Part shown: positions 22,707 through 62,276 of the stretch, piece by piece
Numbering within the stretch: position 1 is the first letter of the stretch
Layout of the letters: each line of letters opens with the position of its first letter
NCBI GenBank assembly: GCA_964595045.1
Contig: CAZQOW010000001.1
Location: 9,183 to 73,182 of the forward strand
Source of the DNA: an uncultured Pseudomonadota bacterium
GTDB taxonomy: Bacteria > UBA10199 > JADFYH01
Direction: 5' to 3'
DNA: 64,000 nt
Translations under genes and position numbers: made by a program
Notes under the pieces: model-generated
Databases searched by the model: none
What the model was told of the DNA's origin: nothing
Seen by the model: only the letters and a program-made list of their open reading frames with translations

Positions 22707-23941
22707 TTCCCTACGGTCAACACTTTATTGATGAAGAAGATATTCAGGCGGTTGTTGAGCTTTTGCGTACCGGATATCTTACACAAGGTCCAAAAATTAT
22801 TGAGTTTGAAAAAACAGTCGCCCAATATGTAGGGGCCAAATTTGCTGTCGCCACTTCTAGTGGAACAACGGCTCTACATCTTGCTTGTATTGCTGCTGGA
22901 ATTGAACCTGGAGATAATTTAATCACTTCTCCTAATACTTTTGTGGCTAGCTCTAATTGTGCCATTTACGTAGGTGCCATTCCTCACTTTGCTGATATTC
23001 ATCCGGAAACTTTAAATATCGATTCATTCAAACTTAAAGAAAAACTTAATGAACTGGGTCGTGTGAAGGCTATCATACCTGTTCACTTTGCAGGTTTTCC
23101 TTGTGAGATGCCCGTAATCAAAAAAATAGCCGATGATTTGGGCGCCAATATTATCGAAGATGGTGCACACGCTTTTGGCGCATCTTATCCAGATGGGGGG
23201 AAAGTGGGAAATTGTGCCCATTCTCTTATGACGGTTTTCTCTTTTCATCCGGTAAAAATGATTACTTCAGGAGAAGGAGGAATCATTACAACCAATGATG
23301 AGGATTGCTATCGAAACCTTCTACGATTTCGAAGTCACGGCATCAATAAAGGGAATGACCCTTTTATAGATCTTAAGCTAGCATTCGACGAAGGCAAAGT
23401 AAACCCTTGGTATTACGAAATGCAATATTTAGGTTTTAATTACCGTATTACTGATATTCAATGTGCTCTAGCTATTTCTCAAATGAAAAAGCTGGATCAG
23501 TTTGTGATGAAACGTCGTGAAATTGCCATTCGTTACGATGAAGCATTTGCCGATCTTCCTTACTTAATGAAAACGCAAGTGGAAGGAAGAGACTTAAGCA
23601 GTCATCATCTTTATGTAGTCCGTATTCAATTTGAAGAGCTTGGTATTTCTCGGCGTGAATTAATGGCAAAACTAGCCAGTTTGGGAGTTGGGAGCCACGT
23701 TCATTACATTCCGGTACCAATGCAACCTTACTATCGAGAACATTACCAAATTCCGGAAAGAGATTACCGCGAGGCTAATCAATACTATCAAGAAGCTCTC
23801 ACACTACCAATTTTTCCCTCTATGAAAGAGGAAGAGATCAGTAACGTCATCAACTCTGTTAAATCTATTTGTCTGCATGAATATAAAAAATCTCTCAATA
23901 CTGATCGTCGGCTGCGGCTCGATCGGCAAGCGACACGCTAA
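22703..23941 (+). CDS. pseC: DegT/DnrJ/EryC1-family aminotransferase (PseC-like, UDP-4-keto-6-deoxy sugar 4-aminotransferase). 3' end probably about 70 nt shorter than the ORF.
   Basis: SSGTTALHLA, FSFHPVKMITSGEGG (Lys-PLP region), 412-aa ORF. The last ~22 aa overlap the next gene and look like read-through. Confidence 0.75.
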   Translation: MIPYGQHFIDEEDIQAVVELLRTGYLTQGPKIIEFEKTVAQYVGAKFAVATSSGTTALHLACIAAGIEPGDNLITSPNTFVASSNCAIYVGAIPHFADIHPETLNIDSFKLKEKLNELGRVKAIIPVHFAGFPCEMPVIKKIADDLGANIIEDGAHAFGASYPDGGKVGNCAHSLMTVFSFHPVKMITSGEGGIITTNDEDCYRNLLRFRSHGINKGNDPFIDLKLAFDEGKVNPWYYEMQYLGFNYRITDIQCALAISQMKKLDQFVMKRREIAIRYDEAFADLPYLMKTQVEGRDLSSHHLYVVRIQFEELGISRRELMAKLASLGVGSHVHYIPVPMQPYYREHYQIPERDYREANQYYQEALTLPIFPSMKEEEISNVINSVKSICLHEYKKSLNTDRRLRLDRQATR

Positions 23942-29002: not shown

Positions 29003-29478
29003 CAAAACTTACTTTAAGACTCGCCTCAGGCGATGATGCAAAACTCTTGTGGGAATGGGCGAATGATCCAGAGACGCGCAAATTCTCCTTTTCGAGCGCG
29101 CCAATTGCTTGGCAAACTCATCAAACATGGCTCGCATCGAAATTGAGCAACCCATCTTATTTTTTTCGAATCGCTCTTGATGCCTCTGAAGTACCGATCG
29201 GATATATTCGTTGTGAAAAAAAAGAAAATAGAGGTCTAATTTCAGTCAGTGTCAGCCCACTCATGCGGAGAGAAGGATATGGCAGCAGAATCATTCAATT
29301 GGCAACTCAAGTGATCTTTAAAGAAATGAATGTCGAAATGATTCATGCTTATATTAAAAAAGAGAACCAAGCTTCTCAAAAGACTTTCGAAAAAGCCGGC
29401 TTCCAATACGAAGGGATTGTCGTTCTGGAACAGCATCAAGCTCTTCAATTTACATATCAAAGGAATCAGACCTTATGA
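28999..29478 (+). CDS. pseH: GNAT N-acetyltransferase (PseH-like)
   Basis: 159 aa GNAT fold (RREGYGSRII..., KENQASQKTFEKAGF). Sits between an aminotransferase and pseI. Confidence 0.55.
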   Translation: MTKLTLRLASGDDAKLLWEWANDPETRKFSFSSAPIAWQTHQTWLASKLSNPSYFFRIALDASEVPIGYIRCEKKENRGLISVSVSPLMRREGYGSRIIQLATQVIFKEMNVEMIHAYIKKENQASQKTFEKAGFQYEGIVVLEQHQALQFTYQRNQTL

Positions 29479-31635: not shown

Positions 31636-32193
31636 ATGATAACAAATGATCACTTAATATTCAGAGGCGGCCATCTTCGTGTTTTAAGAGAAGAAGATGT
31701 TCATCAAAGATACGTAGATGGGCTCAATAACTCCCTCGTTAATCGCTATCTTGGTAACGTAAAAAAAACGACGCAAACTCTAGAAACTGTCTCTCAATTT
31801 GTTAAACAAAACCTACAAGATCCACATGGTATCTTGTTTGGAGTTTGGCCAGACAACTCAAAGAACCACTGTGGCACCGTTCGATTACATAGTATTGATG
31901 ATTATCATTTAACAGCGAATATTGGGATTTGTATTTTCGAAACTGACTTTTGGGGACAGGGCATCGGAACCAAATCTATTCAGATCATTACGCAATGGGG
32001 AATAGACACTTTAAAACTTCGCTGGATTGAATCAGGAATTTATATCGACAATAAAGCATCGCAAAAAGCATTCTTAGCTGCCAACTACAAATGGATATGT
32101 GATTTAGAAGGGAAGCATCTCTTCGATGGCTTACCAACTATTACTCGTATTTATGCAGCCCGCAATAATTATTGTGAAAAAAAAACATCCTAA
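31636..32193 (+). CDS. GNAT-family N-acetyltransferase (RimL/PseH-like), second copy
   Basis: 185 aa. LRVLREEDVHQRYVDGLNN then GQGIGTKSIQIITQWGID, an acetyl-CoA binding pattern. Confidence 0.55.
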   Translation: MITNDHLIFRGGHLRVLREEDVHQRYVDGLNNSLVNRYLGNVKKTTQTLETVSQFVKQNLQDPHGILFGVWPDNSKNHCGTVRLHSIDDYHLTANIGICIFETDFWGQGIGTKSIQIITQWGIDTLKLRWIESGIYIDNKASQKAFLAANYKWICDLEGKHLFDGLPTITRIYAARNNYCEKKTS

Positions 32194-35993: not shown

Positions 35994-36818
35994 ATGCCCA
36001 ACAAAATAAAAAAAACCTATATTATCGCCGACATTTCTTCTAATCACATGGGTAATATGGCAATAGCCCAAGCAATGATTGATGTAGCTGCCAATATTGG
36101 TATTGACTGCGTCAAGTTTCAATCTTGGAAGGCAGGCTCACTCCGTAAAGATTTTCCAGATTACAATGCCACCTACAACCGCCACAAAAAAACCGAGCTT
36201 TCCGAAGATGACCATTTACTGTTGATAGAACATTGTAAAAAAAATAGCATCGACTTCCTCACTACCTGCTTTGATCTAAATCGTATTGATTTTTTAGCTT
36301 CTCTTGGAATCGACACAATCAAAGTTGCCAGTCCTGATTGTGGAAGTATTCGGCTTCTTGAATCTTTAATGAAACATTTTAAAAAACTGATTATTTCTAC
36401 GGGCATGACGCAGGATACAGATGTTCAAAAAGCAATTGAAGTGACACGAGGTCATGATGTTGTTTTTCTTCATTGTGTATCGCTCTATCCTACCCCCCCT
36501 GAAAAAGTAAATATGAAGCGATTAGACTGGCTTAAATCAATGGGGGTTCGTGTCGGTTACAGTGATCACACCATGGGAGTGGATGCTGGGAAGCTTGCCA
36601 TATCTCGCGGAGCAGAGATTTTGGAAAAACATTATACTCTCTCCCGTGACTTGCCTGGTAAAGATCAAGCAATGTCTATGATGCCAGAAGAGTTGGCAGA
36701 GCTCTGCCGTTTTGCGAAAGTGGTTGAGCGGATGGATGGGGTATCGCAACCAGAACTCTCTGAAGATGAAAAAAAACTTCGGGCAATTTATGTTGGAAAA
36801 TGGGGAAATAACCGATGA
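35994..36818 (+). CDS. Short NeuB-family nonulosonic-acid synthase (TIM-barrel only, no SAF domain)
   Basis: YIIADISSNHMGNMAIAQAMIDVAANIGIDCVKFQ and GYSDHTMG, 274 aa. Ends before where a SAF domain would begin. Overlaps neuC. Confidence 0.7.
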   Translation: MPNKIKKTYIIADISSNHMGNMAIAQAMIDVAANIGIDCVKFQSWKAGSLRKDFPDYNATYNRHKKTELSEDDHLLLIEHCKKNSIDFLTTCFDLNRIDFLASLGIDTIKVASPDCGSIRLLESLMKHFKKLIISTGMTQDTDVQKAIEVTRGHDVVFLHCVSLYPTPPEKVNMKRLDWLKSMGVRVGYSDHTMGVDAGKLAISRGAEILEKHYTLSRDLPGKDQAMSMMPEELAELCRFAKVVERMDGVSQPELSEDEKKLRAIYVGKWGNNR

Positions 36819-37975
36819 GTGATAAAAAAAGAAAAATTTGCATTGTGGTTGCCAGTCGTGCCAACTATGGAAGAATTAAATCTGTCTTAAAGGCTATTCA
36901 AAAACACCCCTCTCTTGAACTTCAGTTGATCGTCGGCGCCTCTGCCCTTTTACATCGATTTGGAAGTGTTATTGATATTATTCGAAAAGACGGCTTCGAA
37001 CCTAATGCAACTCTCTATTCTATTGTCGAAGGAGAAAATCCAACAACGATGGCTAAATCAACTGGGATGGGCATTATAGATCTAGCAACACAATTCGAAA
37101 ATTTAAAACCTGACGTTGTGCTAACAGTGGCTGATCGATTTGAAACCATGTCGACCGCCATTGCCGCTTCCTATATGAATATTGCTCTCGCGCACACACA
37201 AGGTGGAGAAGTCACAGGCTCACTCGATGAAAGTGTAAGACATGCAATCACTAAACTTGCCCATATTCACTTTCCTGCAACTCCTATCGCTGAGCAAAGA
37301 CTTTTAAAAATGGGAGAGGAACCTGAAAGAATTCGAATGACAGGTTGCCCCTCTTTAGATCCTATTTGTGATATCGATCTTAAACTTCCCGAAGATATTT
37401 TTCGTCGATATGGAGGGGTCGGGGCCGACATCAAAACCAACTCAGAGTACATCGTGGTTCTTCAACATCCAGTGACAACTGAATATGGATCCGGATTAGC
37501 ACAAATTAACGAAACACTGAAGGCTGTCTCTCAACTCAAAAAACCAACGATATGGCTCTGGCCAAATGTTGACGCAGGATCTGACGATATCTCCAAGGGG
37601 CTTCGAACTTTTCGTGAACGGGAAAAACCAGACTATATCCATTTTTTCCGTAACTTCTCAGTTGAGGATTATGCTCGTTTAATCTCTAACTGCATCTGTC
37701 TCATCGGAAACTCTTCCAGTGGGATACGAGAAGGAGCATTACTCGGTACGCCCGTAGTAAATATAGGATCACGCCAGCAAGGTCGAGAACGTGCCCAAAA
37801 TGTATTGGACGCCGATTATAAAGCCGAAGAGATTCTCAACAAGACAAAAATTCAAATTGATCATGGAAAGTATAAATCTAATCCGCTTTATGGAGATGGT
37901 CATGCAGGTATAAGAATTGCGGATAATTTGGCAACAATGTCACTTCACAATCTCCAGAAACGTCTAACCTATTAA
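36815..37975 (+). CDS. neuC: UDP-N-acetylglucosamine 2-epimerase (hydrolysing), NeuC/LegG type
   Basis: ICIVVASRANYGRIKSVLKAI, DRFETMSTAIAASYMNIALAHTQGGEVTGSLDESVRHAITKLAHIHF, 386 aa. Confidence 0.8.
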   Translation: MSDKKRKICIVVASRANYGRIKSVLKAIQKHPSLELQLIVGASALLHRFGSVIDIIRKDGFEPNATLYSIVEGENPTTMAKSTGMGIIDLATQFENLKPDVVLTVADRFETMSTAIAASYMNIALAHTQGGEVTGSLDESVRHAITKLAHIHFPATPIAEQRLLKMGEEPERIRMTGCPSLDPICDIDLKLPEDIFRRYGGVGADIKTNSEYIVVLQHPVTTEYGSGLAQINETLKAVSQLKKPTIWLWPNVDAGSDDISKGLRTFREREKPDYIHFFRNFSVEDYARLISNCICLIGNSSSGIREGALLGTPVVNIGSRQQGRERAQNVLDADYKAEEILNKTKIQIDHGKYKSNPLYGDGHAGIRIADNLATMSLHNLQKRLTY

Positions 37976-41042: not shown

Positions 41043-41756
41043 ATGTTTTCTCACCTCCCTCCAGCTCTCAAACCGGTATTGGCGTTCATTCCTGCAAGAG
41101 CTGGTAGCAAAGGAGTTCCTAATAAAAATCTTAGAACACTCGATGGAAAAAGCTTAATGCAACTCGCCATAGAATGTGCAAAATCATCCTCTATTTTTGA
41201 CCGTATTGTCGTTTCATCCGATGGAGAAGAAATTCTAAAAGAAGCCACCCGATATGGTGCCGAAACGATTCAACGTCCCCCAGAACTTGCAATTGATAGT
41301 GCCAATATTCTGGATTCAATCACTCATACTCTTCAGTTTTTATTTTCTCAAGGATATCAACCAGCTTCTATTGCACTTTTAGAACCCAGCTCTCCATTTC
41401 GTACACCGGCACTTGTTCAACAGGTAGTTTCCTTATTAAGTGAGCATGAAGCTGCTTTTACAGTAACTGAAGTAGATTTAAAATTTCACCCTGCAAAACA
41501 ATTTATTCTAAATGATCAAAGAATAGCCCTTCCCTCCTGTTCAAATCTGGCTTCTCCAGTGAATCGTCAAGAATTAGACCCAACGTTCATTAGAAATGGT
41601 GGAGTATATGCTTTTCGAACAGAAATGTTTCTTCGAGAAAAATCAGTCTTAGGAAAAAGGCCCCGGGCTTTTATAACAAAGGAAGTTTTGATAAATATCG
41701 ATACGATGGCAGATTATAAACTTGCTCAAAAGCTGATACAAAAAATAAATAAATAA
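41043..41756 (+). CDS. neuA: Acylneuraminate cytidylyltransferase (CMP-NulO synthetase, NeuA/LegF-like)
   Basis: LAFIPARAGSKGVPNKNLRTLDGKSLMQLAIECAKSS...RIVVSSDGEEI aligns with the NeuA N-terminus. 237 aa. Confidence 0.8.
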   Translation: MFSHLPPALKPVLAFIPARAGSKGVPNKNLRTLDGKSLMQLAIECAKSSSIFDRIVVSSDGEEILKEATRYGAETIQRPPELAIDSANILDSITHTLQFLFSQGYQPASIALLEPSSPFRTPALVQQVVSLLSEHEAAFTVTEVDLKFHPAKQFILNDQRIALPSCSNLASPVNRQELDPTFIRNGGVYAFRTEMFLREKSVLGKRPRAFITKEVLINIDTMADYKLAQKLIQKINK

Positions 41757-45271: not shown

Positions 45272-45991
45272 ATGATAGCCGCTTTACTTATTGGTCGTAA
45301 AGGAAGTGTCGGATTTCCTGGAAAAAATAGTTATCCCATTAATGGAAAACCTCTGGCATCTTATCCCATGCATGCTGCCAAATCATCCTCTCTTGTAGAT
45401 CATATTTTCATCTCCACTGACTGCGAAAAGCTCATCGATTTGGCCAAGGAAAACGACCTTAAAATTATTAATCGCCCTGATTATCTCGCCACCAGACAGG
45501 CTCTGGGGGAAGATGTCTTTGTTCATGGTTATAAAGAAATCAAGCAACAAATGGGAAACTTAGAGTTTATGGTTCTCCTTCATTGTAACTCTGCAACTGT
45601 TACAGGAAAAATGATAGATGAAGGAATTCAAACGTTGCGCAAAAACCCTTCCTTCGATTCGGCTGTCTCTGTTTCACGTTATAATATGTGGAGCCCATTA
45701 CGTGCCCGAAAAATTGGATCTGATGGACTTTTACATCCCTTCATCCCACTTGAAACTTTTGGTGATCCAAAAACCCTTAATTGTGATCGGGACTCTCAAG
45801 GAGATGTCTATTTTGCTGATATGGGAGTTTCGATTGTACGCTCGTACTGTTTAGAGCATATTGAAGAGGGATTACTTCCTCAGAAATGGATGGGGCAAAA
45901 AATATATCCATTGATCCAAGAGGCAGGATGCGATGTAGATTATGAGTTTCAAATTCCTCAAACCGAATATTGGATTAAGAAAAACTTATAG
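45272..45991 (+). CDS. Acylneuraminate/CMP-Kdo-type cytidylyltransferase (third CMP-sugar synthetase in the locus)
   Basis: MIAALLIGRKGSVGFPGKNSYPINGKPLASYPMHAAKSS...HIFISTD. 239 aa. Confidence 0.75.
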   Translation: MIAALLIGRKGSVGFPGKNSYPINGKPLASYPMHAAKSSSLVDHIFISTDCEKLIDLAKENDLKIINRPDYLATRQALGEDVFVHGYKEIKQQMGNLEFMVLLHCNSATVTGKMIDEGIQTLRKNPSFDSAVSVSRYNMWSPLRARKIGSDGLLHPFIPLETFGDPKTLNCDRDSQGDVYFADMGVSIVRSYCLEHIEEGLLPQKWMGQKIYPLIQEAGCDVDYEFQIPQTEYWIKKNL

Positions 45992-47176: not shown

Positions 47177-47887
47177 ATGAAAAAGAAAAAAATTCTTATC
47201 ACCGGAGCAGGAACCGGAATAGGCTTAGCCATCACCTGTAAATTCTTGGAACAAGGATGGGAAGTTGTTGCTCATTATAATCTTTCCGGAGATCAATTAA
47301 TAAAGCTTAAAAAACAAAATTTTCCTCTTAGACTTCTTAAAGCTAACTTTGCCAAAACCTCTGAAATCAAAAATTTTATTAAAGTTGTGTCAAAAGAATC
47401 GTTTAATATTCTCATCAATAATGCAGCCATATATGATCTTTCTTTGAGCGCTAAAAATCGGATTTCTTCGATTGAAGATGTTTTAAGAGTCAACATGATA
47501 GCCCCCGCATTAATTGCCGAGGCTCTTTTCCAAAAAATGAAACTTCAAAAACGAGGGCACATTATTAATATTAGTTCGATCGGTGCCAAATATGGTAGCG
47601 ACAGTGAAAACAAATTTTATAGCATGAGTAAACGCGGACTAGAGTCTTTAACCAATACGCTCGCTCGAGAAGGAGCGTCCTTTAATATAGCTGTTAATAC
47701 AATACGACCAGGAGTTATTCAAACGAATTTCCATATTAAAAATAAACGAGTTTCAAAACAGCGACTTCATAAAATTCCTATGAAGCGTCTTGGTAAGCCA
47801 GAAGAGATTGCGGATTTTATATTTTATTTGTGTGATCAACAAACTTTTCTAACTAATCAAACGATTGCGATCGCAGGAGGAGAATAA
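47177..47887 (+). CDS. Short-chain dehydrogenase/reductase (SDR)
   Basis: ILITGAGTGIGLAI (TGxxxGxG), NNAA, catalytic YSMSK. 236 aa. ATG overlaps the radical SAM stop. Confidence 0.75.
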   Translation: MKKKKILITGAGTGIGLAITCKFLEQGWEVVAHYNLSGDQLIKLKKQNFPLRLLKANFAKTSEIKNFIKVVSKESFNILINNAAIYDLSLSAKNRISSIEDVLRVNMIAPALIAEALFQKMKLQKRGHIINISSIGAKYGSDSENKFYSMSKRGLESLTNTLAREGASFNIAVNTIRPGVIQTNFHIKNKRVSKQRLHKIPMKRLGKPEEIADFIFYLCDQQTFLTNQTIAIAGGE

Positions 47888-47890
47888 ATC

Positions 47891-48820
47891 ATGCACGACA
47901 TCCTAATTTCTGCTACCCCTTTTGCCGAGTTCAGCACTTATCCTATTCAAAGACTTTCTGAACATGGCTTTAGAGCTACTATAAGTCCCTATGGATCTTA
48001 CGCAACCGAAGAGCAAAGCATCTCTTTATTAAAAGAAACCATCGGTATTATTGCAGGATTAGAACCTCTTACCAGAAAAGTATTAGAATCTTCTCCAACA
48101 CTTCGAGTCATCTCTCGAGTCGGCATAGGATTAGATAATATTGATTTGCAAGCTGCTGAACAATTAAATATTAAAGTTTTAAATACTCCGGATGCACCCA
48201 CTGATGCAGTTGCCGAGTTAACACTTGCACATCTCCTTGCACTGCTTCGCCAAACTCCTAAAAACAATTTGGAAATGAAAAATGGAGAATGGATTCAAAA
48301 TCCTGGTACCCTTTTAAAAAATAAAACGGTTGGTGTTATAGGTCTTGGAAGAATCGGAAAAAGATTCATTGAATTGCTTAAAGCATTCAAAGTAAAAATT
48401 TTAGGATTTGACCTCACCCCCCCATGGCCTTTCATTGAGGAATATGGTGTTAATCATTGCAATAATATTGAAGAAATTATTCAGGATGCAGACATCATTT
48501 CACTCCATATTCCGCATACCAAAGGGATCGGTTATACAATTGGAAAAAAAGAAATCGCCAAAATGAAAAAAAATGCGACTCTAATCAATTGTTCCAGAGG
48601 AGGCTTGGTCGATGAAAACGCTTTGTTACAAGCATTACAGGAAAAACGAATCAGCGCGGCTGCAATCGACTGCTTTGAAGAAGAACCCTATCGAGGTTCT
48701 CTGAAACAACTTGATAATATTATTCTTACTCCTCATATAGGGTCTTATACTAGAGAAACACGGGTCCAGATGGAATCCGAAGCAGTTGAAAATTTGATTA
48801 ATTATCTAAAACAGATATGA
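47891..48820 (+). CDS. D-isomer-specific 2-hydroxyacid dehydrogenase (phosphoglycerate/glycerate dehydrogenase-like)
   Basis: KTVGVIGLGRIGKRF, HIPHTKGIGYTIGKKEIAKMKKNATLINCSRGGLVDENAL. 309 aa. Confidence 0.8.
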   Translation: MHDILISATPFAEFSTYPIQRLSEHGFRATISPYGSYATEEQSISLLKETIGIIAGLEPLTRKVLESSPTLRVISRVGIGLDNIDLQAAEQLNIKVLNTPDAPTDAVAELTLAHLLALLRQTPKNNLEMKNGEWIQNPGTLLKNKTVGVIGLGRIGKRFIELLKAFKVKILGFDLTPPWPFIEEYGVNHCNNIEEIIQDADIISLHIPHTKGIGYTIGKKEIAKMKKNATLINCSRGGLVDENALLQALQEKRISAAAIDCFEEEPYRGSLKQLDNIILTPHIGSYTRETRVQMESEAVENLINYLKQI

Positions 48821-49491
48821 ATTTGAAATATAAAATACTTTCATATCCTTTAGAACAAGAAACGCCTCTTTATGGGGATACTCCCAAAATTCAGTTTGTC
48901 CCACTAAAGAGCATCGCTAAAGGAGACAGTTCAAATACAACTTTTGTCTCATTTTGTACACATTCCGGAACCCATATCGATGTTCCACTTCACTTTTCCT
49001 CTCAAGGATTTTCCATCACTGACTTTACAATTGAAGATTTTATTTTTCACTCCCCATTTTTGCTAACGTGCCCTAAAGAACCGGGTACTTTGGTGGAAAT
49101 TAATGATATTTTAAAATACGAAGAGATGTTAATAAAATGCGATATACTTTTAATTCGCACGTTATTTTCTCGCTTTCGCGGAAAAGAAATTTATCGAACT
49201 CAGAACCCTGGAATATCCTCTCTGTTAGCAAAATTTATTGTCGATCGATTTAAAAATATTCGTGCAATCGGTATTGACTCAATTTCTATTAGTTCTTATC
49301 AACACCGACCTATGGGAAGGGAAACGCATCAAATTTTTCTAGAGAGAGATTCTAATTACCCACCGATGATCATTATTGAAGATTTATACTTAGAAAATCT
49401 AAATCAACTGGAAAAACTATTTGTTATCCCATTATTTTTAAAAGGATTAGATGGTTCACCCGTCACTGTATTTGCCCAGATTAAACTATGA
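48817..49491 (+). CDS. Cyclase-family protein (kynurenine formamidase-like metal hydrolase)
   Basis: HSGTHIDVPLHF matches the cyclase HxGTHxDxPxH motif. 224 aa. Confidence 0.6.
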   Translation: MNLKYKILSYPLEQETPLYGDTPKIQFVPLKSIAKGDSSNTTFVSFCTHSGTHIDVPLHFSSQGFSITDFTIEDFIFHSPFLLTCPKEPGTLVEINDILKYEEMLIKCDILLIRTLFSRFRGKEIYRTQNPGISSLLAKFIVDRFKNIRAIGIDSISISSYQHRPMGRETHQIFLERDSNYPPMIIIEDLYLENLNQLEKLFVIPLFLKGLDGSPVTVFAQIKL

Positions 49492-50324
49492 ACCTCAGTC
49501 AATTAACCAAAGATGTAATTCTCGTCTGCCAGCGTGCTGGAGAATATCTTTTAAAAACTATCAACGATGTTAAGCCTGAGTTGAAAGGCTCGAACGATTT
49601 TGTGACCCAAGTAGATGTAGGTTCGGAAAAAATACTACTCAAAGGACTTGCTACTCTTTGCCCTCAAGCGAACTTCTTGAGTGAAGAAGCTGGAGAACAA
49701 AAGAATAATTTGAATGAAAGCTTGTTATGGGTAGTTGATCCTTTAGATGGTACTGTAAACTATGCTTTTGGTATTCCTTTTTTTGCAATATCAGTGGCTC
49801 TTATAAAAGAACAAAAACCTATTTTAGCGGTGGTCTATGCTCCAGCCCTTAACGAATTGTTTGTTGGGGAAATTGACAGAGGATCATATCTTAATAATAA
49901 GAGATTATCCTTAGATGAAAACAAAAACCAATTGTTAAAAATGATAGCAACAAGTGCCGGAATGACAGAAAGCGATTTTACTGGTAAAACATCCTATTAT
50001 CACCAAAACCTTCTTCCTCATTATAATCGTTTGCGACTCCTCGGTTCGCAAGCACTCCATTTGTGTTATGTGGCAGCCGGCAGATTAGAGGTTGCATTAA
50101 CTAACCAAGCAAAATTATGGGATGATGCTGCAGGATCTCTCATTCTGCAGGAGGCGAGTGGGATTTATAGTGATTTTTCCGGAAAAGAAATTTTTCCTCT
50201 CAAGAGAAATTCTCCTGTTTACGAAGGAAAATCATACGAAAGTATTGGTTCTTCAAGTCAAAAAGCTCTTGATAAAATTGTAAAACTCCTCAATGTTAAT
50301 CAAGAGGAAAGAGGTATTATATGA
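49488..50324 (+). CDS. Inositol-monophosphatase-family sugar-phosphate phosphatase
   Basis: WVVDPLDGTVNYAFGIPFFAISVAL (IMPase motif), LGSQALHLCYVAAGR. 278 aa. Confidence 0.75.
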   Translation: MNLSQLTKDVILVCQRAGEYLLKTINDVKPELKGSNDFVTQVDVGSEKILLKGLATLCPQANFLSEEAGEQKNNLNESLLWVVDPLDGTVNYAFGIPFFAISVALIKEQKPILAVVYAPALNELFVGEIDRGSYLNNKRLSLDENKNQLLKMIATSAGMTESDFTGKTSYYHQNLLPHYNRLRLLGSQALHLCYVAAGRLEVALTNQAKLWDDAAGSLILQEASGIYSDFSGKEIFPLKRNSPVYEGKSYESIGSSSQKALDKIVKLLNVNQEERGII

Positions 50325-54389: not shown

Positions 54390-55088
54390 ATGCATGCAGT
54401 CTTATTGGCTGGTGGAGTAGGGACCAGACTTAAACCATACACAACTATTATACCAAAACCGTTGATGCCGGTTGGGGGAATGCCTATTATGGAAATTATT
54501 CTCCGCCAACTCGCCCGAGATAATTTTAAAGAGGTAACTATTACCTTAGGGTATCTAGGAAAACTTATAGAAAGTTACTTTGGAAATGGAAGTCAACTGG
54601 GAATTCGAATTACTTATTCTTATGAAACTACTCCTCTAGGAACCATGGGGCCTTTAAAACTTATTCGTGAATTGCCTGAAAACTTTCTTGTTATGAACGG
54701 CGATATTCTTACAGACTTATCTTTTATAAATTTTTATAAAAACCATCTAGAAACTAGAAAAATTTTTTCTGTATCTACTTATTACCGTAAAATTTCAACC
54801 GAGTTAGGAATTTTAGATATTGATAACGAAGGAAATCTTATAGGTTTTCGTGAAAAACCTAAGCTTGGATTTCATGTCAGTATGGGAATTTATATGGCCA
54901 ATAAGCAAATATTAGATCACATACCTGACAATTGTCCTTTTGGATTTGATCAATTAATGAGACGTTTTATTGAGTTGAAAAATTTCCCTTATATTTATCA
55001 TCATGAAGGTTACTGGCTCGATATCGGACGCACAGAAGATTATAATCTTGCTCAAGAAGATTTTGATAAGATTCAACAATTACTTTAA
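54390..55088 (+). CDS. Sugar-1-phosphate nucleotidyltransferase (HddC/ManC-like short NTP_transferase)
   Basis: MHAVLLAGGVGTRLKPYTTIIPKPLMPVGG is the G-x-G-T-R-L pyrophosphorylase signature. 232 aa. Confidence 0.75.
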   Translation: MHAVLLAGGVGTRLKPYTTIIPKPLMPVGGMPIMEIILRQLARDNFKEVTITLGYLGKLIESYFGNGSQLGIRITYSYETTPLGTMGPLKLIRELPENFLVMNGDILTDLSFINFYKNHLETRKIFSVSTYYRKISTELGILDIDNEGNLIGFREKPKLGFHVSMGIYMANKQILDHIPDNCPFGFDQLMRRFIELKNFPYIYHHEGYWLDIGRTEDYNLAQEDFDKIQQLL

Positions 55089-55169: not shown

Positions 55170-56390
55170 ATGTTTAAGTTAGACATTTCAGGAAATTATG
55201 CTGTGACCTCTTCAAGACGATTGAAAATTTTTCATATAATCTCTCGACTCAATGTTGGAGGAGCAGCAATATATGGAATTTTTTTGGCTTCCTATTTAAA
55301 AAAGAGAGGTCACGAAGTTACTTTAATCAATGGTAAATCTGGTGTGTCTGAAGGAGATATGACCGAGCTTGTGGATAAAGACCTAGTTAATTTTGAACAA
55401 ATCTACATTTCCGATTTAGGACGTGAAATCCACCCTCTTAAAGATATTAAAACTCTTTTTAAACTTATCAAAATTTTTTGGAATGAAAAACCAGATGTTG
55501 TGCACACACATGCCTCAAAAGCAGGTTTTCTTGGACGTATAGCAGCACTATTCGTAAAAACACCTCTAATAATCCATTCATTTCACGGTACTATTTTTGA
55601 TGGTTATTTTAATCGTTGGAAGTCAAGTTTTTTTATCTTTATTGAAAAGCTTCTTGGAAAATATTCAGATTGCCTCTTTACTGACACAGCTTCTAATCGA
55701 GAAGAAATTATCCGGCTTAAGATAGCAGCGCCTAGAAAAATAAAAGTTGTACCAATAGGCATTGATTTAGATCCGTTCAAAGATATAACCTCTTTTAAAG
55801 GAATTCTTCGAAATAAATTACATCTAAACGAAAAAACTAAAATCATCGGAACTGTAGCCAGACTTGTCCCAATTAAAGGTATTTCTTATTTTTTAGATGC
55901 GGCCTCTCAAATTCTACTTAAATATCAAAATGTGCATTTTGTTATTGTGGGAGATGGAGAGTTAAGATCATCTTTAGAAAAAAAAGTAGAAGAGCTAGGA
56001 ATAACTAAAAATATTACTTTTCTTGGTTTTTGGCGAGACTTAAGAGAAATATATGCCGATCTTGATCTGGTTATACTTTCTTCATTGAATGAAGGGTCCC
56101 CCATTACTATTTTAGAAGCCATGGCTTCTGGGAAACCAGTCATCGCAAGTTCTGTGGGCGGTGTCCCAGATCTTATTCGGCATAATGAAAATGGTCTTTT
56201 GGTTCCATCAAAAAATGGAGATAAAATTGCGGAGTTTGCACTAAACTTACTTACAAATGCAGCAGAATGTGAACGCCTATCTAGTAAAGCGAAACAAGAA
56301 GTTTTCGAAAAATTTACAATATTGAAAAGCGTTGAAAATACAGAAGGTTGGTATTTAAATCTAATGAACTCATCTGCTGAATTGCTATAG
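55170..56390 (+). CDS. GT4-family (GT-B) glycosyltransferase
   Basis: EGSPITILEAMASGKPVIASSVGGVPDLI is the E-x7-E motif. 406 aa. Confidence 0.8.
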   Translation: MFKLDISGNYAVTSSRRLKIFHIISRLNVGGAAIYGIFLASYLKKRGHEVTLINGKSGVSEGDMTELVDKDLVNFEQIYISDLGREIHPLKDIKTLFKLIKIFWNEKPDVVHTHASKAGFLGRIAALFVKTPLIIHSFHGTIFDGYFNRWKSSFFIFIEKLLGKYSDCLFTDTASNREEIIRLKIAAPRKIKVVPIGIDLDPFKDITSFKGILRNKLHLNEKTKIIGTVARLVPIKGISYFLDAASQILLKYQNVHFVIVGDGELRSSLEKKVEELGITKNITFLGFWRDLREIYADLDLVILSSLNEGSPITILEAMASGKPVIASSVGGVPDLIRHNENGLLVPSKNGDKIAEFALNLLTNAAECERLSSKAKQEVFEKFTILKSVENTEGWYLNLMNSSAELL

Positions 56391-56412: not shown

Positions 56413-57387
56413 TTGAAAGTATTAATTACAGGTGGAGCAGGATTTATAGGAAGCCATTTAGCTGAAGAATATTTAAACAAAGGAGACGAAGTATACGTTA
56501 TAGATGATCTATCTACTGGCTCCCGAGACAATATAATAGCCATACAAAATAAATTACCTTCTAAAATGGGTAGTCTTTTTGTTACTTACGATTCTGTTTT
56601 AAATCGAGAGGTCATGTTAGAGCTGATTGGTATTTGTGATGTCGTAGTTCATTTAGCCGCAGCGGTTGGAGTGAAATATATTTTAGACAATCCTCTTAGC
56701 TCAATTATTACCAACATTCAAGGGACCGATTTAGTATTGAATCTTTGTGCTAAATTTAAAAAAAAAGTTTTAATTGCTTCCACTTCTGAGGTTTATGGAA
56801 AACATGATCATGCCCCCCTGGTGGAGACTGACGATTGTGTATACGGCCCTTCAGTCAAATCTCGCTGGAGTTATGCAGCTGCCAAACTAATGGATGAATT
56901 TACAGCCTTAGCTTATCACCGCACTAAAAACTTGCCTGTATTGATTGTACGTTTTTTTAATACCGTCGGCCCTCGCCAAACAGGTCGATATGGGATGGTA
57001 ATTCCCCGCTTCATTGAACAAGCCATGAAAGATGAAGATATTACTGTTTATGGGGATGGGAAACAAACTCGAACGTTTACTCATGTCTGTGAAGTTGTAA
57101 ATTGTTTAATTCGATTGATAGATGAACCTAAAGCAATTGGTGAAGTAATTAATATTGGAGGAATCGAAGAAATTTCAATACTGAATCTGGCGACACGAAT
57201 TCTTGAGATTACCGGCTCTAAATCATTAATAAAAACTGTTCCTTATGAAGAAGCTTACCCCAAAGATTTCGATGACATGCAAAGAAGAGTCCCCTCTACA
57301 GAAAAGCTGCAAAAAATCATAGGAATTGCGCCAAAGATGACCATGAATGATATATTAAAAGACATTATTAAGAGTTTTAAAACCTGA
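56413..57387 (+). CDS. UDP-glucuronate decarboxylase / UDP-sugar 4-epimerase-like SDR (UXS/ArnA C-terminal type)
   Basis: KVLITGGAGFIGSHLAEEYLNKGDEVYVIDDLSTGSRDNI is close to the UXS N-terminus. YAAAKLMDE (YxxxK). 324 aa. Confidence 0.7.
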   Translation: MKVLITGGAGFIGSHLAEEYLNKGDEVYVIDDLSTGSRDNIIAIQNKLPSKMGSLFVTYDSVLNREVMLELIGICDVVVHLAAAVGVKYILDNPLSSIITNIQGTDLVLNLCAKFKKKVLIASTSEVYGKHDHAPLVETDDCVYGPSVKSRWSYAAAKLMDEFTALAYHRTKNLPVLIVRFFNTVGPRQTGRYGMVIPRFIEQAMKDEDITVYGDGKQTRTFTHVCEVVNCLIRLIDEPKAIGEVINIGGIEEISILNLATRILEITGSKSLIKTVPYEEAYPKDFDDMQRRVPSTEKLQKIIGIAPKMTMNDILKDIIKSFKT

Positions 57388-57411: not shown

Positions 57412-59304
57412 ATGATTAGATTTTTTTTCTTTGGTTTTGTTGCCTTTAATTTAAGCCTTTTAGCTGTATGGTTTACACGTAATCTCTCTCGCAAACAGGG
57501 ATGGGTGGCTTCCCCGCGTGCCGATCGATGGCATAGTACCCCAACTGCTTTATATGGAGGGGTTGGAATCTTCTTTTCCTTTTCCATTACTAATCTCTTT
57601 ATTTATTTTTTTTATAAACCAATTATCCACTATTCGTTTTTTTTAGTATTATTTCTTGGGGGGAGTGGAAGTTTTTTATTGGGCTTTATTGATGATCTCT
57701 ATCATCTTAAACCTGTTTCAAAACTTGTTGGAGAAATCGCCTTATCAACCCTATTCATTATTATGGGAGGTACTTTTGAAATCTCCTCCAGTAACACAAT
57801 CAATATTTTACTCACTTACTTTTGGTTTATCGGTATCATCAATGCGATTAATTTTCTCGATAATATGGATGGATTGGCCTCGGGAGTGAGCATTATCTCT
57901 TCGTTGTCACTTTTAAGTTTAATGGTAATTAATGGAAGTAAATTAGCCACTGATCCTATGTTATTGATTATTTTTATTTTTATAATGTCAATACTAGGGT
58001 TTTTAGTTTTCAACTTTTCTCCAGCTTCAATTTTTATGGGAGATATGGGTAGCCTTTTTTTAGGTTACACACTAGCGGCTCTTACTATACCTCATTCCTT
58101 TAATCATTATGGAGATCAAGCCAACTACTCTTCACTACTTAGCCTCTTCCTTCCTGTTGTAATATTAGGAATTCCCATCTTTGATACTACCCTTGTAACG
58201 GTCTCTCGAATATTCTCAGGAAGAGGAGTTACCCGTGGAGGATGTGATCATAGTTCTCACAGACTGGTAGGGCTCGGATTTTCTGAAAAATTGTCTGTTT
58301 TAATTTTATATATACTCACTTCAATTGGGGGACTTACTGCAATACTGATGACGTTATTTCATGAAACTTCTCTACTCCTTTTTGGAATATATATTGTTTT
58401 CTTAATTATCATTGGTATTTACTTAGGGAAGAAAAAAATCACTTCTTATAATGAAGCTCCCAAAAATAACAAACGTTGGACCCCTCTAGTAGGACAAATT
58501 ATGTATAAAAAAGGTATGATTGAAGTAGCATTAGATATCATACTAATTTCTCTATGTTATTTTTCGTCATTTTTATTAATAACTCCCACGACTACCTTAA
58601 AAACTACTCCCAACAGTTATGCAGTTACTCTTCCGATTGTTATCGTCTCTACTATTATTGTTTTTCAATTTTCTCATGTTTATAGAGGTGTTTGGCATTT
58701 ATTAGCCATTGAAGATATTTACATATTTTTAAAAGCTATCTCTGTTTCTTTTTTCATGCTCCTTTTAATTAATCTGTTTATTTTTCATTCTTCAGTTCCT
58801 TGGGAAGTTTATATCACCTTTTCTTTACTTCTATTTTTTTCCGTCGTTGGAAGCCGTCTTTCCTTTCGATTTTTTGATACTTTTGTCAGCACTCATGGCT
58901 TATCAAAACGTCCAAAAAAAATATTACTATATGGAGCAGGCGCTGGCGGCAAACTGTTGGTTAGCGAAATCAAAAAAAATGAAAAATTTAGCTCGTGGAA
59001 ACCGATCGGTTTTTTAGATGACGACTTAAGTAAGCAAGGACGAACTGTATCAGGAGTTAAAATTTTGGGAGATTTATTATGGCTATCGAAAGGAAAATAT
59101 AATCCTAAAAATATTAATTTTTCAGAAATTTGGATTACTTTTAAGAAAATACCTGCTGGTAGAATTGAAGAATTAAGAAAAATTCTAAATAGCGATCTCC
59201 CAATTAAAAAGATTTCTTTGGATATTATTGCAATTGAAACAACCTCTTTCCAAAACACTGAGGAACTTGAGGACTACGAACCATCAGAAGGATGGGCTGG
59301 TTAA
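57412..59304 (+). CDS. WecA/WbpL-type polyprenyl-phosphate HexNAc-1-phosphate transferase (Glycos_transf_4) fused to a C-terminal Rossmann-like domain resembling the CoA_binding_3 module of WbaP/PglF-type proteins
   Basis: NAINFLDNMDGLASG and FMGDMGSLFLGY (MraY/WecA motifs) within about 11 TM helices. C-terminal KILLYGAGAGGKLLVSEIKKNEKFSSWKPIGFLDDD...GVKILG with no Bac_transf domain after it. 630 aa. Confidence 0.65.
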   Translation: MIRFFFFGFVAFNLSLLAVWFTRNLSRKQGWVASPRADRWHSTPTALYGGVGIFFSFSITNLFIYFFYKPIIHYSFFLVLFLGGSGSFLLGFIDDLYHLKPVSKLVGEIALSTLFIIMGGTFEISSSNTINILLTYFWFIGIINAINFLDNMDGLASGVSIISSLSLLSLMVINGSKLATDPMLLIIFIFIMSILGFLVFNFSPASIFMGDMGSLFLGYTLAALTIPHSFNHYGDQANYSSLLSLFLPVVILGIPIFDTTLVTVSRIFSGRGVTRGGCDHSSHRLVGLGFSEKLSVLILYILTSIGGLTAILMTLFHETSLLLFGIYIVFLIIIGIYLGKKKITSYNEAPKNNKRWTPLVGQIMYKKGMIEVALDIILISLCYFSSFLLITPTTTLKTTPNSYAVTLPIVIVSTIIVFQFSHVYRGVWHLLAIEDIYIFLKAISVSFFMLLLINLFIFHSSVPWEVYITFSLLLFFSVVGSRLSFRFFDTFVSTHGLSKRPKKILLYGAGAGGKLLVSEIKKNEKFSSWKPIGFLDDDLSKQGRTVSGVKILGDLLWLSKGKYNPKNINFSEIWITFKKIPAGRIEELRKILNSDLPIKKISLDIIAIETTSFQNTEELEDYEPSEGWAG

Positions 59305-59453: not shown

Positions 59454-62276
59454 CTACAAATTACAATACCTAGGTAGAGGGGTAATTCCAACAAGGGCTT
59501 GATCTGCGCAGTTCTTATTAGTGATTGACTGCTCTGAAAGATCCGCTGAATAAATAATAGTTTCATCAATTAAACCTTCAAAAAAACCATTAAACGCGGC
59601 TCCTTTGTCACAGTAAGCACCAATACAAACATCCACGGAATTGTTAGATATTACACCACTCTGTGGTGTTGATGACTCCATGACTTTATCAACATATAAT
59701 TTTTGCAGCTTTCCATCATACACGCCAACAATATGATGCCACTTTCCATCATTTATCAATGTATTGGATTCTGACTCAGCTACCACCAATGTTTTAGTCG
59801 AAAAACCAACTACAAGACCAGGGCCATTAACTCTAACTCTCATCCAATAGGAAGAATCAACCATTCCAAGCTTTGATAAAATAGATTTATTTGTTGAAAT
59901 TGCAGTAGTCTTCACCCAAGCTTCAATAGTTAATTTATTCATACCATCGAGGGTGGAACTATCTGGCATTAGCGAATAACCGCTTATTCCATCAAATTGG
60001 AACAACCTTCCTAAAATGCCAGTCATAGGTGGTAACCAAGAGATTCCTCCATGCAACATTCCATGATTTCCATTACCCGAGTAGTCGCAAACCCCATTTC
60101 CTGGCATTCCTCCAGGTGCAGTGGGCTTACCTAAACCAGCTGGACAAAGAATATTTGGGTCCGAATCGAATCTCCACCACCCAACAATACTATCATCTGT
60201 ATTAAACCTACTGGGTTCAGTGCAAATTGAAACAGCTCCCTGAGCATCTTTCGAACAAATTCTCCACGCATACGATTTATTTGGTTGCAAATAAAGAGCT
60301 GTAGTCCCCATATTCGGAGCGAATGCAGCGTTACCATCGGTGGAGTTTTGGATAACGAATTTCGAATCTTTCACATCACTTCTATAAAGTGCAGCTTGAG
60401 GAAATACTTTTGGGTCACTCGAAACCTCCGAGAAGTAAACTTCGTAAGCTATTTTATCCCCATCAGGATCGTTCGCAGGATTCCAATGTAGATATAGTCT
60501 TGTCGGAGCCCATGTTACCCCATTTGCAGGTGACGCGGCTAATTCAGGGGTGAGTGGACTGTTATTTTTAGCCGAAGAAAGAAACTTATAGGCTTGAACT
60601 GTTTCGACTCCATTCGCAGTCCCTGCCCAAGTAACAACGAAATTCGAAAAATCGCTGGCAAGCTCTGCAAGACGACTGTTTTGAGCCGTCGTCGAAATGC
60701 TCACAGGTCCTTTGAGCACATTCAACATTCCATCCAAAAGAACCGCTGAGAAATTATTTTGATTAATAAACGAAAGAGCAATGGTGTCTGAAGCACCGGC
60801 AGCCGAATTTCCGGAAATTCCAAAACCACTTGATAAACGTGGTTCGACTTTTCCTTCATTTCCTCCCAATGCTAAATTTACTGAGGCTAATTCTATCAAA
60901 TCAAGACCAATCGATTTCAAAGAGATATTATGCTGGTCATCGTAGGCAAGAACCACATGATCAAGATAAGAAATAATATCAGGATTTTCCAGAAAACCTC
61001 CGTCTCCACCTTTCACAACATATTCAGTAAAGGTGGGATTTTTAACTAGTCCATCATTTGATGTATTCAACGAAATTCTCTGTGCCCCAATATCTCCGCG
61101 ACTTGGAGATGCAGCTCTGGCAAATTCATAGGCGATCACAAAATCACTTGAACCGGTCCCTTTATTCATACTGTTATATGCAATGCGTGGTTTTTGAGCT
61201 CTAAAAACGTTGGGGAGAGCAAAGCAAGCACCGGTATCAGACGCTTTGAGTGCCGCTGTAGGATCACTATAAACTGGAAATGACGATTTGTTTAACGCGC
61301 GATTGGTTGGAGAAAACTCCGGTTGAATATAGCGGGCATATACAGAAGTAGAATCTCGTCGAGCGGGATCATCACAACCGATAAAACCTTTATTGGTTTG
61401 CCACGTCACCAAAAAACCATTGGAACTCGAAGGAGCAACATCTGGCTTACCAGACTGTTCCCATGCCTGAATTTCACTATCATTCGTAGCAGGATGAGCT
61501 GGATTGTTTGAAACAATCCAGATACCTGAAATCAAAATCCCCTCTTCCCAAACAAAATCAGTTCCTGTCCCACCACTCCCTTTATCATCTGGATGAGCTG
61601 CCGGGGTTAAATCATTGGCGTTTAACATCTTTACGATGATATTGCTGAATTTTCTTCCTTCAGAATTACTAGATCCATCTGAGTTTTTTGCAAAATCTGC
61701 AATTCCTTTTAATTCCCAAACCACTAAAAAACGCCCTTTTCCATCCGAACCTTTATTGTAAGCAACAGCAGGATTGGAAGCGTTAGGACAATTTTTTGGA
61801 GTCGTAATTGCCGAATTATCTGAATCGAAAGTTTCATAAAAGCAACCGCGCTTGGTACGTGGTGTGCTAATAAGCACGGGATAGTTAAGAGAATTACCCG
61901 CTTTATCTCTAAATTGACCTAGAATATTAGAAGATCCATCATCATTTTTCTTTTCCCACACAACCAAATATCTTTGATTGTCGGGATCATAAGCAATATC
62001 AGGATGAGTCGACTGAACTTTCACATTTTCAAGATTTGATGTTTTCGAATTGATAACAAACGGACTTCTTCGCACTCCTATGGCAGAACCGCTCTCCGAA
62101 AGGGAATTGGTTTGACGATTAAAAAATTTTGATGGATAAAGTGCCGAATTTATTTTTCTAAAAAAATCATTCAGAGAAAAATAAAGATTAGGTTGAGCCT
62201 GGCTAGTGTTCGATATTATCACCAAAAGAACTAAGAGGCTGAACCCCTTCACAAAAAAAGTTTTAAAAAACCTCAT
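59454..62276 (-). CDS. Large secreted protein with FN3-like segment and C-terminal LamG (concanavalin-A-like lectin) domain
   Basis: Signal peptide FSLLVLLVIISNTSQAQ. FN3-like GVTWAPTRLYLHWNPANDPDGDKIAYEVYFS. C-terminal LamG-like ...LTIEAWVKTT...DGKWHHIVGVYDG.KLQKLYVDKV. 940 aa. Confidence 0.6.
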   Translation of the reverse strand: MRFFKTFFVKGFSLLVLLVIISNTSQAQPNLYFSLNDFFRKINSALYPSKFFNRQTNSLSESGSAIGVRRSPFVINSKTSNLENVKVQSTHPDIAYDPDNQRYLVVWEKKNDDGSSNILGQFRDKAGNSLNYPVLISTPRTKRGCFYETFDSDNSAITTPKNCPNASNPAVAYNKGSDGKGRFLVVWELKGIADFAKNSDGSSNSEGRKFSNIIVKMLNANDLTPAAHPDDKGSGGTGTDFVWEEGILISGIWIVSNNPAHPATNDSEIQAWEQSGKPDVAPSSSNGFLVTWQTNKGFIGCDDPARRDSTSVYARYIQPEFSPTNRALNKSSFPVYSDPTAALKASDTGACFALPNVFRAQKPRIAYNSMNKGTGSSDFVIAYEFARAASPSRGDIGAQRISLNTSNDGLVKNPTFTEYVVKGGDGGFLENPDIISYLDHVVLAYDDQHNISLKSIGLDLIELASVNLALGGNEGKVEPRLSSGFGISGNSAAGASDTIALSFINQNNFSAVLLDGMLNVLKGPVSISTTAQNSRLAELASDFSNFVVTWAGTANGVETVQAYKFLSSAKNNSPLTPELAASPANGVTWAPTRLYLHWNPANDPDGDKIAYEVYFSEVSSDPKVFPQAALYRSDVKDSKFVIQNSTDGNAAFAPNMGTTALYLQPNKSYAWRICSKDAQGAVSICTEPSRFNTDDSIVGWWRFDSDPNILCPAGLGKPTAPGGMPGNGVCDYSGNGNHGMLHGGISWLPPMTGILGRLFQFDGISGYSLMPDSSTLDGMNKLTIEAWVKTTAISTNKSILSKLGMVDSSYWMRVRVNGPGLVVGFSTKTLVVAESESNTLINDGKWHHIVGVYDGKLQKLYVDKVMESSTPQSGVISNNSVDVCIGAYCDKGAAFNGFFEGLIDETIIYSADLSEQSITNKNCADQALVGITPLPRYCNL

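Follow-up and report, generated by a model that had tools for sequence, protein, structure and literature searches.

The gene studied lies at the end of a large glycan gene cluster, on the forward strand of the 64,000-nt stretch of DNA that was analysed (the window). Its open reading frame (57412..59304; ATG start, TAA stop) encodes 630 amino acids, in which a polytopic phosphoglycosyltransferase (PGT) domain is followed by a four-transmembrane-helix bundle (4TMH) and a cytoplasmic Rossmann-like domain (DUF). The frame and the motifs quoted in an earlier note on this DNA were all present at the positions implied. Upstream, on the same strand, are the other genes of a cassette, in the order sugar-1-phosphate nucleotidyltransferase (54390..55088, 232 aa), GT4-family glycosyltransferase (55170..56390, 406 aa) and extended SDR of UXS/ArnA-like type (56413..57387, 324 aa), the first two recognised by Pfam and the SDR by Pfam and NCBIfam. 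Rfam gave no matches within the window.

The N-terminal domain, residues 1-340 (57412..58431), was matched by PF00953 Glycos_transf_4 over residues 78-226 (E=1.3e-31, 110.2 bits against a cut-off of 27). The structure of the protein was predicted with a model pLDDT of 85, and Foldseek aligned the PGT domain with MraY (6OYH, E=6.5e-9, TM-score 0.74 on the target) and with DPAGT1 (E about 5e-6), ie an MraY/DPAGT1-like fold of 10-11 transmembrane helices; eleven are predicted here, as the earlier note had it. Across 50 homologs, ten residues are invariant, D94, D95, K104, N147, D150, N151, D153, D211, H280 and H283, and with them the motifs DD, NxxNxxDNMDG (N144/N147/D150), FMGDxGS (F208-G213) and DHSSHR (D279-H280-x-x-H283-R284). 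The Asp pair D94-D95 (57691..57696) follows TM3, and we take it to be the Mg2+/phosphate site of MraY/WecA enzymes. The ORF translation and the homolog alignment place the DNMDGLASG motif at residues 150-158 (57859..57885) and FMGDMGSL at residues 208-215 (58033..58056). The DHSSHR sequence, residues 279-284 (58246..58263), is in the cytoplasmic loop before TM10, at the place of the MraY HHH motif and the WecA His loop; it is part of a signature, GG(R/K)DHSSHR, which is the family's own and sets it apart from WecA, WbpL, TagO, MraY and DPAGT1, with which the catalytic fold and motifs are otherwise shared. The term WecA-type used in the earlier note is right only at the level of the superfamily. 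The WecA equivalog model (TIGR02380 ECA_wecA) scored 84.3 bits against a cut-off of 326, and the MraY equivalog model 45 bits against 192, so that on its sequence the domain is a member of the MraY/WecA (PNPT) superfamily and not a WecA ortholog.

Characterised polytopic PGTs are about 320-410 aa long and end without a C-terminal 4TMH and DUF, whereas here the protein continues. A basic linker, residues 341-357 (58432..58482), is modelled with low pLDDT and is part of a loop (residues 341-366) with six K/R residues that separates the first 11 helices from a further four. The 4TMH, residues 358-498 (58483..58905), contains the invariant residues K366, D375, W428, D435 and R482. It leads into the DUF, of CoA_binding_3 type, at residues 499-600 (58906..59211). 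There the glycine loop G508-A-G-A-G-G513 falls in residues 503-520, KILLYGAGAGGKLLVSEI, and is followed by KPIGFLDDD (530-538, with GFLDDD at 533-538), GVKILG (548-553) and E572. The last 30 residues (601-630, 59212..59301) form a tail which is poorly conserved and modelled with low confidence. By the logic of this topology the catalytic loops, the linker and the DUF are all on the cytoplasmic side. E. coli WecA is reported to have an 11-helix layout with a cytoplasmic C-terminus, and such a layout allows a module that runs from cytoplasm to cytoplasm to be appended C-terminally.

That the added segment is a transmembrane cluster with a Rossmann-like domain agrees with three kinds of evidence. 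Firstly, residues 374-611 align with positions 2-235 (of about 450) of the NCBIfam models TIGR03023 WcaJ_sugtrans and TIGR03025 EPS_sugtrans (E about 1e-13); the alignments cover only the transmembrane and DUF half of the models, the catalytic half being unmatched, and score 48-50 bits against cut-offs of 296-411. Secondly, a family profile searched against the PDB found 3NKL, the DUF of a WbpM-like protein (E=2.4e-10). Thirdly, the predicted structure has a Rossmann-like fold after the four-helix bundle, superposable on the DUF of WbaP or PglF type. The PF13727 (CoA_binding_3) model, proposed in the earlier note as a check, gave an intermediate answer: searched with the full-length protein it gave no match at E<=0.01, and on the isolated C-terminus it scored 22.5 bits (E=1.3e-4), slightly short of the gathering cut-off of 25 bits. 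Taken by itself that shortfall would favour a reading in which the C-terminal 290 residues are extra helices and a linker-like tail, with neither a Rossmann fold nor homology to the WbaP/PglF module, but the 3NKL, NCBIfam and fold matches contradict it and we consider it barely credible. Most homologs carry a precomputed PF13727 match, and homologs score above threshold, with 44.7 bits in P0013 and 78.5 bits in P0260 as examples. The GAGxxG, GFxDD and E572 elements are conserved, and the module positions invariant among 50 sequences of 35-54% identity (the five in the 4TMH, and Y507, G508, A509, G513, F534, D536 and E572) indicate long-term purifying selection, which acts strongly on the module half as it does on the PGT half.

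The same 4TMH and CoA_binding_3-type DUF, with conserved positions in common, are carried by the long-form UDP-GlcNAc 4,6-dehydratases PglF, WbpM and CapD (Cap5D). In these the module stands at the N-terminus, ahead of a Polysacc_synt_2 SDR dehydratase, whereas here it comes after a polytopic PGT with nothing behind it. The beta-4 motif, E(I/V)xIAIPSA in PglF-type proteins, reads EIWISS here. The large monotopic PGTs WbaP, WcaJ and CpsE also have the module at the N-terminus, but their catalytic domain is a monotopic Bac_transf (PF02397), evolutionarily unrelated to the polytopic PF00953 domain, and the WbaP-like beta-hairpin is not predicted in the model of residues 601-630. Kinship with WbaP was seen only by fold and through TIGR03023 and TIGR03025; PDB searches with the single sequence and the family profile did not return WbaP at E<=1. 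When the module alone was used in an HMMER search of 1.84 billion representatives, with matches classified by BLAST, 827 clusters (50% identity) were obtained at E<=1e-10. Among the best 150 representative matches, five had an architecture without a PGT, and all five were module plus Polysacc_synt_2. The classification also gave 52 short matches with the module only, which are candidate stand-alone proteins. The earlier note had likened the module to either WbaP or PglF; it is common to both, and by these comparisons is closest to the PglF/WbpM type.

The architecture had also been called unusual. That holds against characterised enzymes but not in general. Genomes were scanned with two PGT-domain motifs as patterns, including the DHSSHR signature, and 599 of 600 stretches were confirmed as relatives; at least 599 species genomes matched the motifs. 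The full PGT plus module match was found at each of the best 80 loci, with an ORF of 583-709 aa at 79 of them, in Acidobacteriota, Nitrospirota, Desulfobacterota, Planctomycetota and other phyla. The best 120 matches in the protein database were likewise all long proteins of this type. The same continuous-ORF layout in these 80 loci and 120 protein clusters rules out a gene-fusion artefact. The combination of a polytopic PGT with the module is real and widespread in environmental bacteria.

Three independent proteins (P0191, P0260 and P0262, 936-975 aa) have a further part. They carry the signature G[RK]DHSSHR, a PGT domain 37-45% identical to that encoded at 57412..59304 and the module likewise after it, and in addition a C-terminal PglF-type dehydratase domain (Polysacc_synt_2). 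In a tree of the module, those of the triple fusions cluster with the PglF-type modules, which makes the ancestral loss of a dehydratase domain a plausible origin for the family. The existence of such proteins also bears on whether the gene studied is what is left of a PGT-PglF or WbaP-like fusion whose last catalytic domain recently disappeared through frameshift or truncation, leaving a module with no function. The local DNA contradicts this. Neither Bac_transf (PF02397) nor Polysacc_synt_2 (PF02719) was found in the ORF by Pfam, in agreement with the earlier note. A convergent gene (59454..62276) starts 150 nt past the stop, stops crowd all three forward frames downstream, and tblastn with a PglF-type dehydratase domain found no match there. 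A frameshifted or lost downstream domain was thus ruled out. The two-part protein has, moreover, the same end point in homologs of several phyla, and its module residues are invariant over 50 sequences. The number of relatives, the narrow range of ORF lengths and the 827 module clusters describe a stable family and not decay, and we regard a recently degraded fusion as very improbable. The sole strong PF02719 gene within the window is a short-form gene at 21714..22706.

The gene directly upstream, the SDR, is a conserved partner. An ortholog (>=45% identity) was found upstream of the PGT at 46 of the 80 loci, within 500 bp at 42 and on the same strand at 45, and every deep branch of the PGT tree includes loci that have it. 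A homolog of the GT4-family gene lies upstream on the same strand at 49 of 80 loci, and the nucleotidyltransferase gene belongs to the cassette in a subset (21 of 80). At two loci (L006 and L007) the SDR and PGT genes form a pair away from any glycan cluster. One Pyrinomonadaceae clade of PGT paralogs has kept the module while the SDR is missing. The best PDB relative of the SDR is a UDP-glucuronate decarboxylase (E=4e-42), and its invariant set comprises STSE, Y154, K158 and R220. The putative reaction can be given as a class only, UXS/ArnA-like, with GMD/LegB-like 4,6-dehydratase chemistry as a possible alternative. The pairing was also approached from the SDR. Of the SDR-anchored metagenome loci, 40 extended far enough downstream to be informative, and 30 of these had no PGT there, which rules out an SDR exclusive to the PGT-module partnership; in the same sample, all ten WecA-like PGTs found downstream of the SDR carried the module, and none was a PGT alone.

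From these results, the gene probably encodes an active initiating polytopic PGT which uses a sugar product of the adjacent SDR and whose C-terminal module would serve in uridine-nucleotide sensing or scaffolding. With a UDP-sugar as donor and polyprenyl phosphate as acceptor, the enzyme would transfer a sugar-1-phosphate, release UMP and thereby prime the glycan of the large cluster that the gene terminates; the donor would be produced or modified by the SDR. The conserved Rossmann-type positions are what suggests that the DUF may bind uridine nucleotides. By analogy with WbaP, UMP/UDP or a UDP-sugar would occupy the conserved glycine loop and the acidic end of beta-2, and the DUF might tune transferase activity or hold together an oligomer or a group of enzymes at the membrane. 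In WbaP the DUF binds UMP, UDP and UTP and forms the dimer interface, and the enzyme is inhibited by UMP with an IC50 of 4.1 uM (PMC10942596). The authors of that 2024 structure paper proposed UMP-based feedback, and found it puzzling that large monotopic PGTs and PglF-like dehydratases share the 4TMH-DUF (PMC10942596). Since polytopic PGTs likewise release UMP, the reasoning on product feedback in WbaP extends to them directly. The oligomerisation role may not transfer, since the beta-hairpin that mediates dimerisation in WbaP is not predicted here. The earlier note suggested that, through the module, initiation may be coupled to another enzyme or to nucleotide sensing; the conserved adjacent SDR gene and the triple fusions are consistent with this.

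A different emphasis is that the module is mainly a membrane platform which recruits the adjacent UXS-like SDR to the PGT, so that the transferase would receive a labile UDP-keto or decarboxylated sugar straight from the SDR. The triple fusions would then be the covalent form of the complex, and PglF/WbpM a half-complex. The fusion of the module to SDR dehydratases of PglF type, and its position between PGT and SDR dehydratase in P0191, P0260 and P0262, are in keeping with recruitment, as are the SDR upstream at more than half of the loci and the module on every WecA-like PGT downstream of the SDR. The triple fusions sit in glycan clusters, and the separate UXS-like SDR is missing from both of the contexts examined. 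Adjacency, however, indicates metabolic linkage and is no proof of physical contact. Being UXS-like, the adjacent SDR is of another subfamily than the Polysacc_synt_2 domains to which the module is fused elsewhere. A large clade of PGT paralogs retains the module without the SDR, and in WbaP-type PGTs the module occurs with no SDR at all. Recruitment as the main role is possible but rather unlikely.

The module has so far been described only in WbaP-type transferases and PglF-type dehydratases, and polytopic PGTs are a third and widespread host. It tracks a step of the pathway, the entry point at the membrane where UDP-sugars are consumed, and not a catalytic fold. Speculatively, it could serve the first committed steps of glycan assembly as a portable coupling device, joined on separate occasions to SDR sugar-nucleotide enzymes and to both of the unrelated PGT superfamilies; the present gene would then belong to a membrane metabolon in which a labile modified UDP-sugar goes straight from SDR to PGT under uridine-nucleotide control, with the triple fusions as its covalent version. 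If true, this would account for the conservation shared by WbaP and PglF, which has been called puzzling. The new host and the triple fusions offer a testable handle on the role of the module, be it nucleotide sensing, oligomerisation or enzyme recruitment.

No description of the PGT plus module architecture was found in the literature, which is weak evidence because subscription journals were thinly covered. Such proteins are currently annotated as hypothetical or as UDP-GlcNAc:undecaprenyl-phosphate GlcNAc-1-P transferase, a name which leaves about 45% of the protein out of account and probably gives the wrong donor sugar. The best relative of the protein in the genome collection is from a Nitrospirae MAG and is only 42% identical. 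Apart from NCBI, the identical protein is recorded only in a Logan assembly, of run SRR23447887.

The ORF at 57412..59304 on the forward strand runs from an ATG start to a TAA stop and encodes 630 aa. The motifs named in the earlier note were all found in the translation where they had been implied: DNMDGLASG at residues 150-158, FMGDMGSL at 208-215, KILLYGAGAGGKLLVSEI at 503-520, KPIGFLDDD at 530-538 and GVKILG at 548-553. Residues 78-226 match Glycos_transf_4 in Pfam (PF00953, E=1.3e-31), and the NCBIfam WecA and MraY models align weakly over residues 10-334. The WecA score was 84 bits against a cut-off of 326 bits, so the label "WecA-type" has to be replaced: the protein shares the polytopic MraY/WecA (PNPT) superfamily with WecA but is not an ortholog. 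The NCBIfam WcaJ and EPS large-PGT (phosphoglycosyl transferase) models match residues 374-611 through model positions 2-235 (E about 1e-13), ie through their TM-plus-DUF half only, and these alignments show a protein that is split in nature. PF13727 (CoA_binding_3) scored 22.5 bits on the isolated C-terminus, slightly below the 25-bit cut-off. The module is held in common with the large monotopic PGTs and the PglF-type dehydratases, but the Pfam search found neither PF02397 nor PF02719 in the window protein, which is therefore not a member of either group.

AlphaFold2, given 50 homologs, produced a confident model (pLDDT 85.3, pTM 0.85). The model predicts eleven TM helices to residue 340, a low-confidence linker (341-357) inside a basic loop, four further TM helices (358-498), a beta-alpha-beta domain (502-600) and a disordered C-terminal tail. 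MraY and human DPAGT1 superpose on the N-terminal part (Foldseek, E=6.5e-9), and the PNPT catalytic domain is intact. The domain matches and this fold bear out the proposal of a PGT followed by the module common to WbaP and PglF. With the N-terminus outside, the predicted topology is coherent: the DD pair, the NxxNxxDNMDG, FMGDxGS and DHSSHR loops, the linker loop 341-366 (6 K/R) and the DUF would all be cytoplasmic. Such a placement of the module is compatible with action on the active-site face. The model contains no counterpart of the WbaP beta-hairpin, and for that reason WbaP-style domain-swapped dimerisation is unsupported.

The C-terminus was checked for a frameshift, as the earlier note had proposed. 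All three forward frames downstream of the stop codon are rich in stops, PglF-type dehydratase domains used as tblastn queries gave no match downstream of the ORF, and the next gene, encoding a 940-aa LamG-domain protein on the reverse strand (59454..62276), is convergent and starts 150 nt past the stop codon. Among the 80 best genome loci (L008-L087), 79 ORFs were of 583-709 aa and the remaining one of 391 aa; homologs share the C-terminal end point of the window protein. Across 50 sequences merely 35-54% identical to it, module residues K366, D375, W428, D435, R482, Y507, G508, A509, G513, F534, D536 and E572 are invariant. A degraded fusion, with its last catalytic domain recently lost or frameshifted, was rejected on the missing remnant, the shared ends and the invariant residues; the PglF/WbaP-type 4TMH-DUF (four-TM-helix bundle plus DUF) is intact and under purifying selection. 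The LamG-domain protein looks secreted; its C-terminal part is a Laminin_G_3/ConA-like lectin domain (E=6e-20), and the N-terminal ~750 aa are otherwise without annotation.

A search of 5.8 billion proteins returned only long proteins in the best 120 clusters (512-682 aa, query coverage 82-100%), most bearing precomputed PF00953+PF13727 matches; because such pairs occur there, the architecture is already implicit in domain databases. Scanning one genome per species with two PGT-domain motifs confirmed at least 599 stretches as relatives, the best of these in the genome collection being 42% identical to the window protein. The full PGT+module match was present in 80 of the 80 best loci, drawn from Acidobacteriota (many Pyrinomonadaceae), Nitrospirota, Desulfobacterota, Planctomycetota, Omnitrophota and Heliomicrobium. 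The architecture is thus common in environmental lineages, and the earlier description of it as unusual holds relative to characterised enzymes but not overall. Homologs P0013, P0016, P0023 and others carry a precomputed PF22674 match in the database table; no such match came back when P0013 was scanned with Pfam at a threshold of E<=1e-3.

With the module alone as query, 4192 cluster representatives matched at E<=1e-3, of which 827 reached E<=1e-10. The best 150 representative matches comprised 90 PGT+module proteins, 52 short module-only sequences (400 aa or less), five module+Polysacc_synt_2 proteins (PglF/WbpM type), three triple fusions (PF00953+PF13727+PF02719) and none of WbaP-type architecture. 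The short proteins (P0132, P0133, P0139, P0171, P0265 and others), some beginning with M or V at the module boundary, could be stand-alone, split genes or contig-edge fragments. The triple fusions are P0191 (955 aa), P0260 (936 aa) and P0262 (975 aa). The two looked up (loci L168:882-3809, L169:5001-7868 and L170:5001-7868) are continuous genes within glycan clusters, and P0191 is present on two separate contigs. All three fusions have the G(R/K)DHSSHR signature of the family, and the PGT domains of two examined were 37-45% identical to the window protein. Their modules group with PglF-type modules in an unrooted neighbour-joining tree, and D375, YRGxW, D435, R482/R486, GAGxxG, GFxDD and E572 are conserved alike in all three classes. 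The census, the tree and these shared positions indicate, at the level of sequence, that the module of the window protein is PglF-type. Origin by PGT-PglF fusion with ancient loss of the dehydratase domain is plausible, the unrooted tree giving no direction. No description of the triple fusion was found in the literature searched, coverage of which was incomplete.

Directly upstream of the PGT gene are an NTP-transferase (54390..55088), a GT4 (55170..56390) and an extended SDR (56413..57387), an order which recurs across phyla. An SDR ortholog (45-72% identical) is upstream in 46 of the 80 genome loci, lying at most 500 bp away in 42 and sharing the strand of the PGT gene in 45; counted over the cassette, GT4 homologs are upstream in 49, the SDR in 43-46, the NTP-transferase in 21, and GT4 or SDR in 63. 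Linkage of the PGT+module gene to SDR and GT4 is therefore conserved. At L006/L007 the SDR+PGT pair lies away from any glycan cluster. Human UDP-glucuronate decarboxylase aligns end to end with the SDR (E=4e-42), and its STSE, Tyr, Lys, Arg set is kept and is invariant in 19 orthologs from different phyla, a very conserved subfamily with 65% mean column identity; the SDR has the UXS/ArnA catalytic set but is not a canonical UXS. In the reverse test, with 40 SDR-anchored metagenome loci having sufficient downstream DNA, ten had a PGT downstream, every one with the module, and 30 had none; the association is asymmetric. SDR pairing is present in all deep branches of the PGT tree, and one Pyrinomonadaceae paralog clade has GT4 and no SDR. 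Gene order in that clade is NTP-transferase, RmlC-like cupin, GT4, PGT-module, then genes for TPR and Wzy/ligase-like proteins. The main rival explanation of the module, as a docking platform for the SDR in a metabolon, draws on the adjoining SDR and on the triple fusions, both examined contexts of which lack a separate SDR, but has to contend with the SDR-less clade and with the presence of the module in WbaP.

The gene itself is ordinary, a putative priming transferase closing a glycan cluster; the protein is informative for the question of what the 4TMH-DUF module does. In WbaP the DUF binds UMP, UDP and UTP, forms most of the dimer interface, and UMP inhibits WbaP with an IC50 of 4.1 uM; the presence of the module in PglF-like dehydratases is unexplained (PMC10942596). 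The Myxococcus large PGT EpsZ is activated by a response regulator, which modelling suggests stabilises the DUF-mediated dimer (PMC12802240). We infer that the PGT+module protein starts the glycan of the cluster from a UDP-sugar which the adjacent SDR makes or modifies. The DUF would bind a uridine nucleotide in the conserved crevice of glycine loop, GFxDD and E572, and would either throttle the PGT or organise an assembly; throttling by UMP is conceivable because UMP is a by-product of polytopic PGTs also.

The PGT+module ORF closes a glycan cluster that extends over about 42 kb (about 17.6-59.3 kb) and also contains an ABC exporter, methyltransferases and GT2/GT4 enzymes. The cluster starts with a Wzi-family capsule assembly protein (17643-19310, E=4e-62), followed by a UDP-sugar 6-dehydrogenase (19357..20658) which could supply a uronic-acid substrate to the UXS-like SDR. 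Two NeuB-family nonulosonic acid synthases (24883-25890, 29475-30524), PseB-like (21714..22706) and PseC-like (22703..23941) genes, a GNAT (31636..32193), two CTP_transf_3 cytidylyltransferases (41043..41756, 45272..45991) and a UDP-GlcNAc 2-epimerase (36815..37975) suggest that two different nonulosonic acids, or one modified, are made. ORFs at 32126-34069, 38010-39407, 43638-45197 and 51313-52509 (647, 465, 519 and 398 aa) had no Pfam match at 1e-4; the last, very hydrophobic, may be a Wzy-like polymerase. A radical-SAM/SPASM protein (46034-47176) adjoins a stretch (47177..50324) encoding an SDR, a 2-hydroxyacid dehydrogenase and one protein each of the cyclase and inositol-monophosphatase families, an unusual combination for sugar modification.
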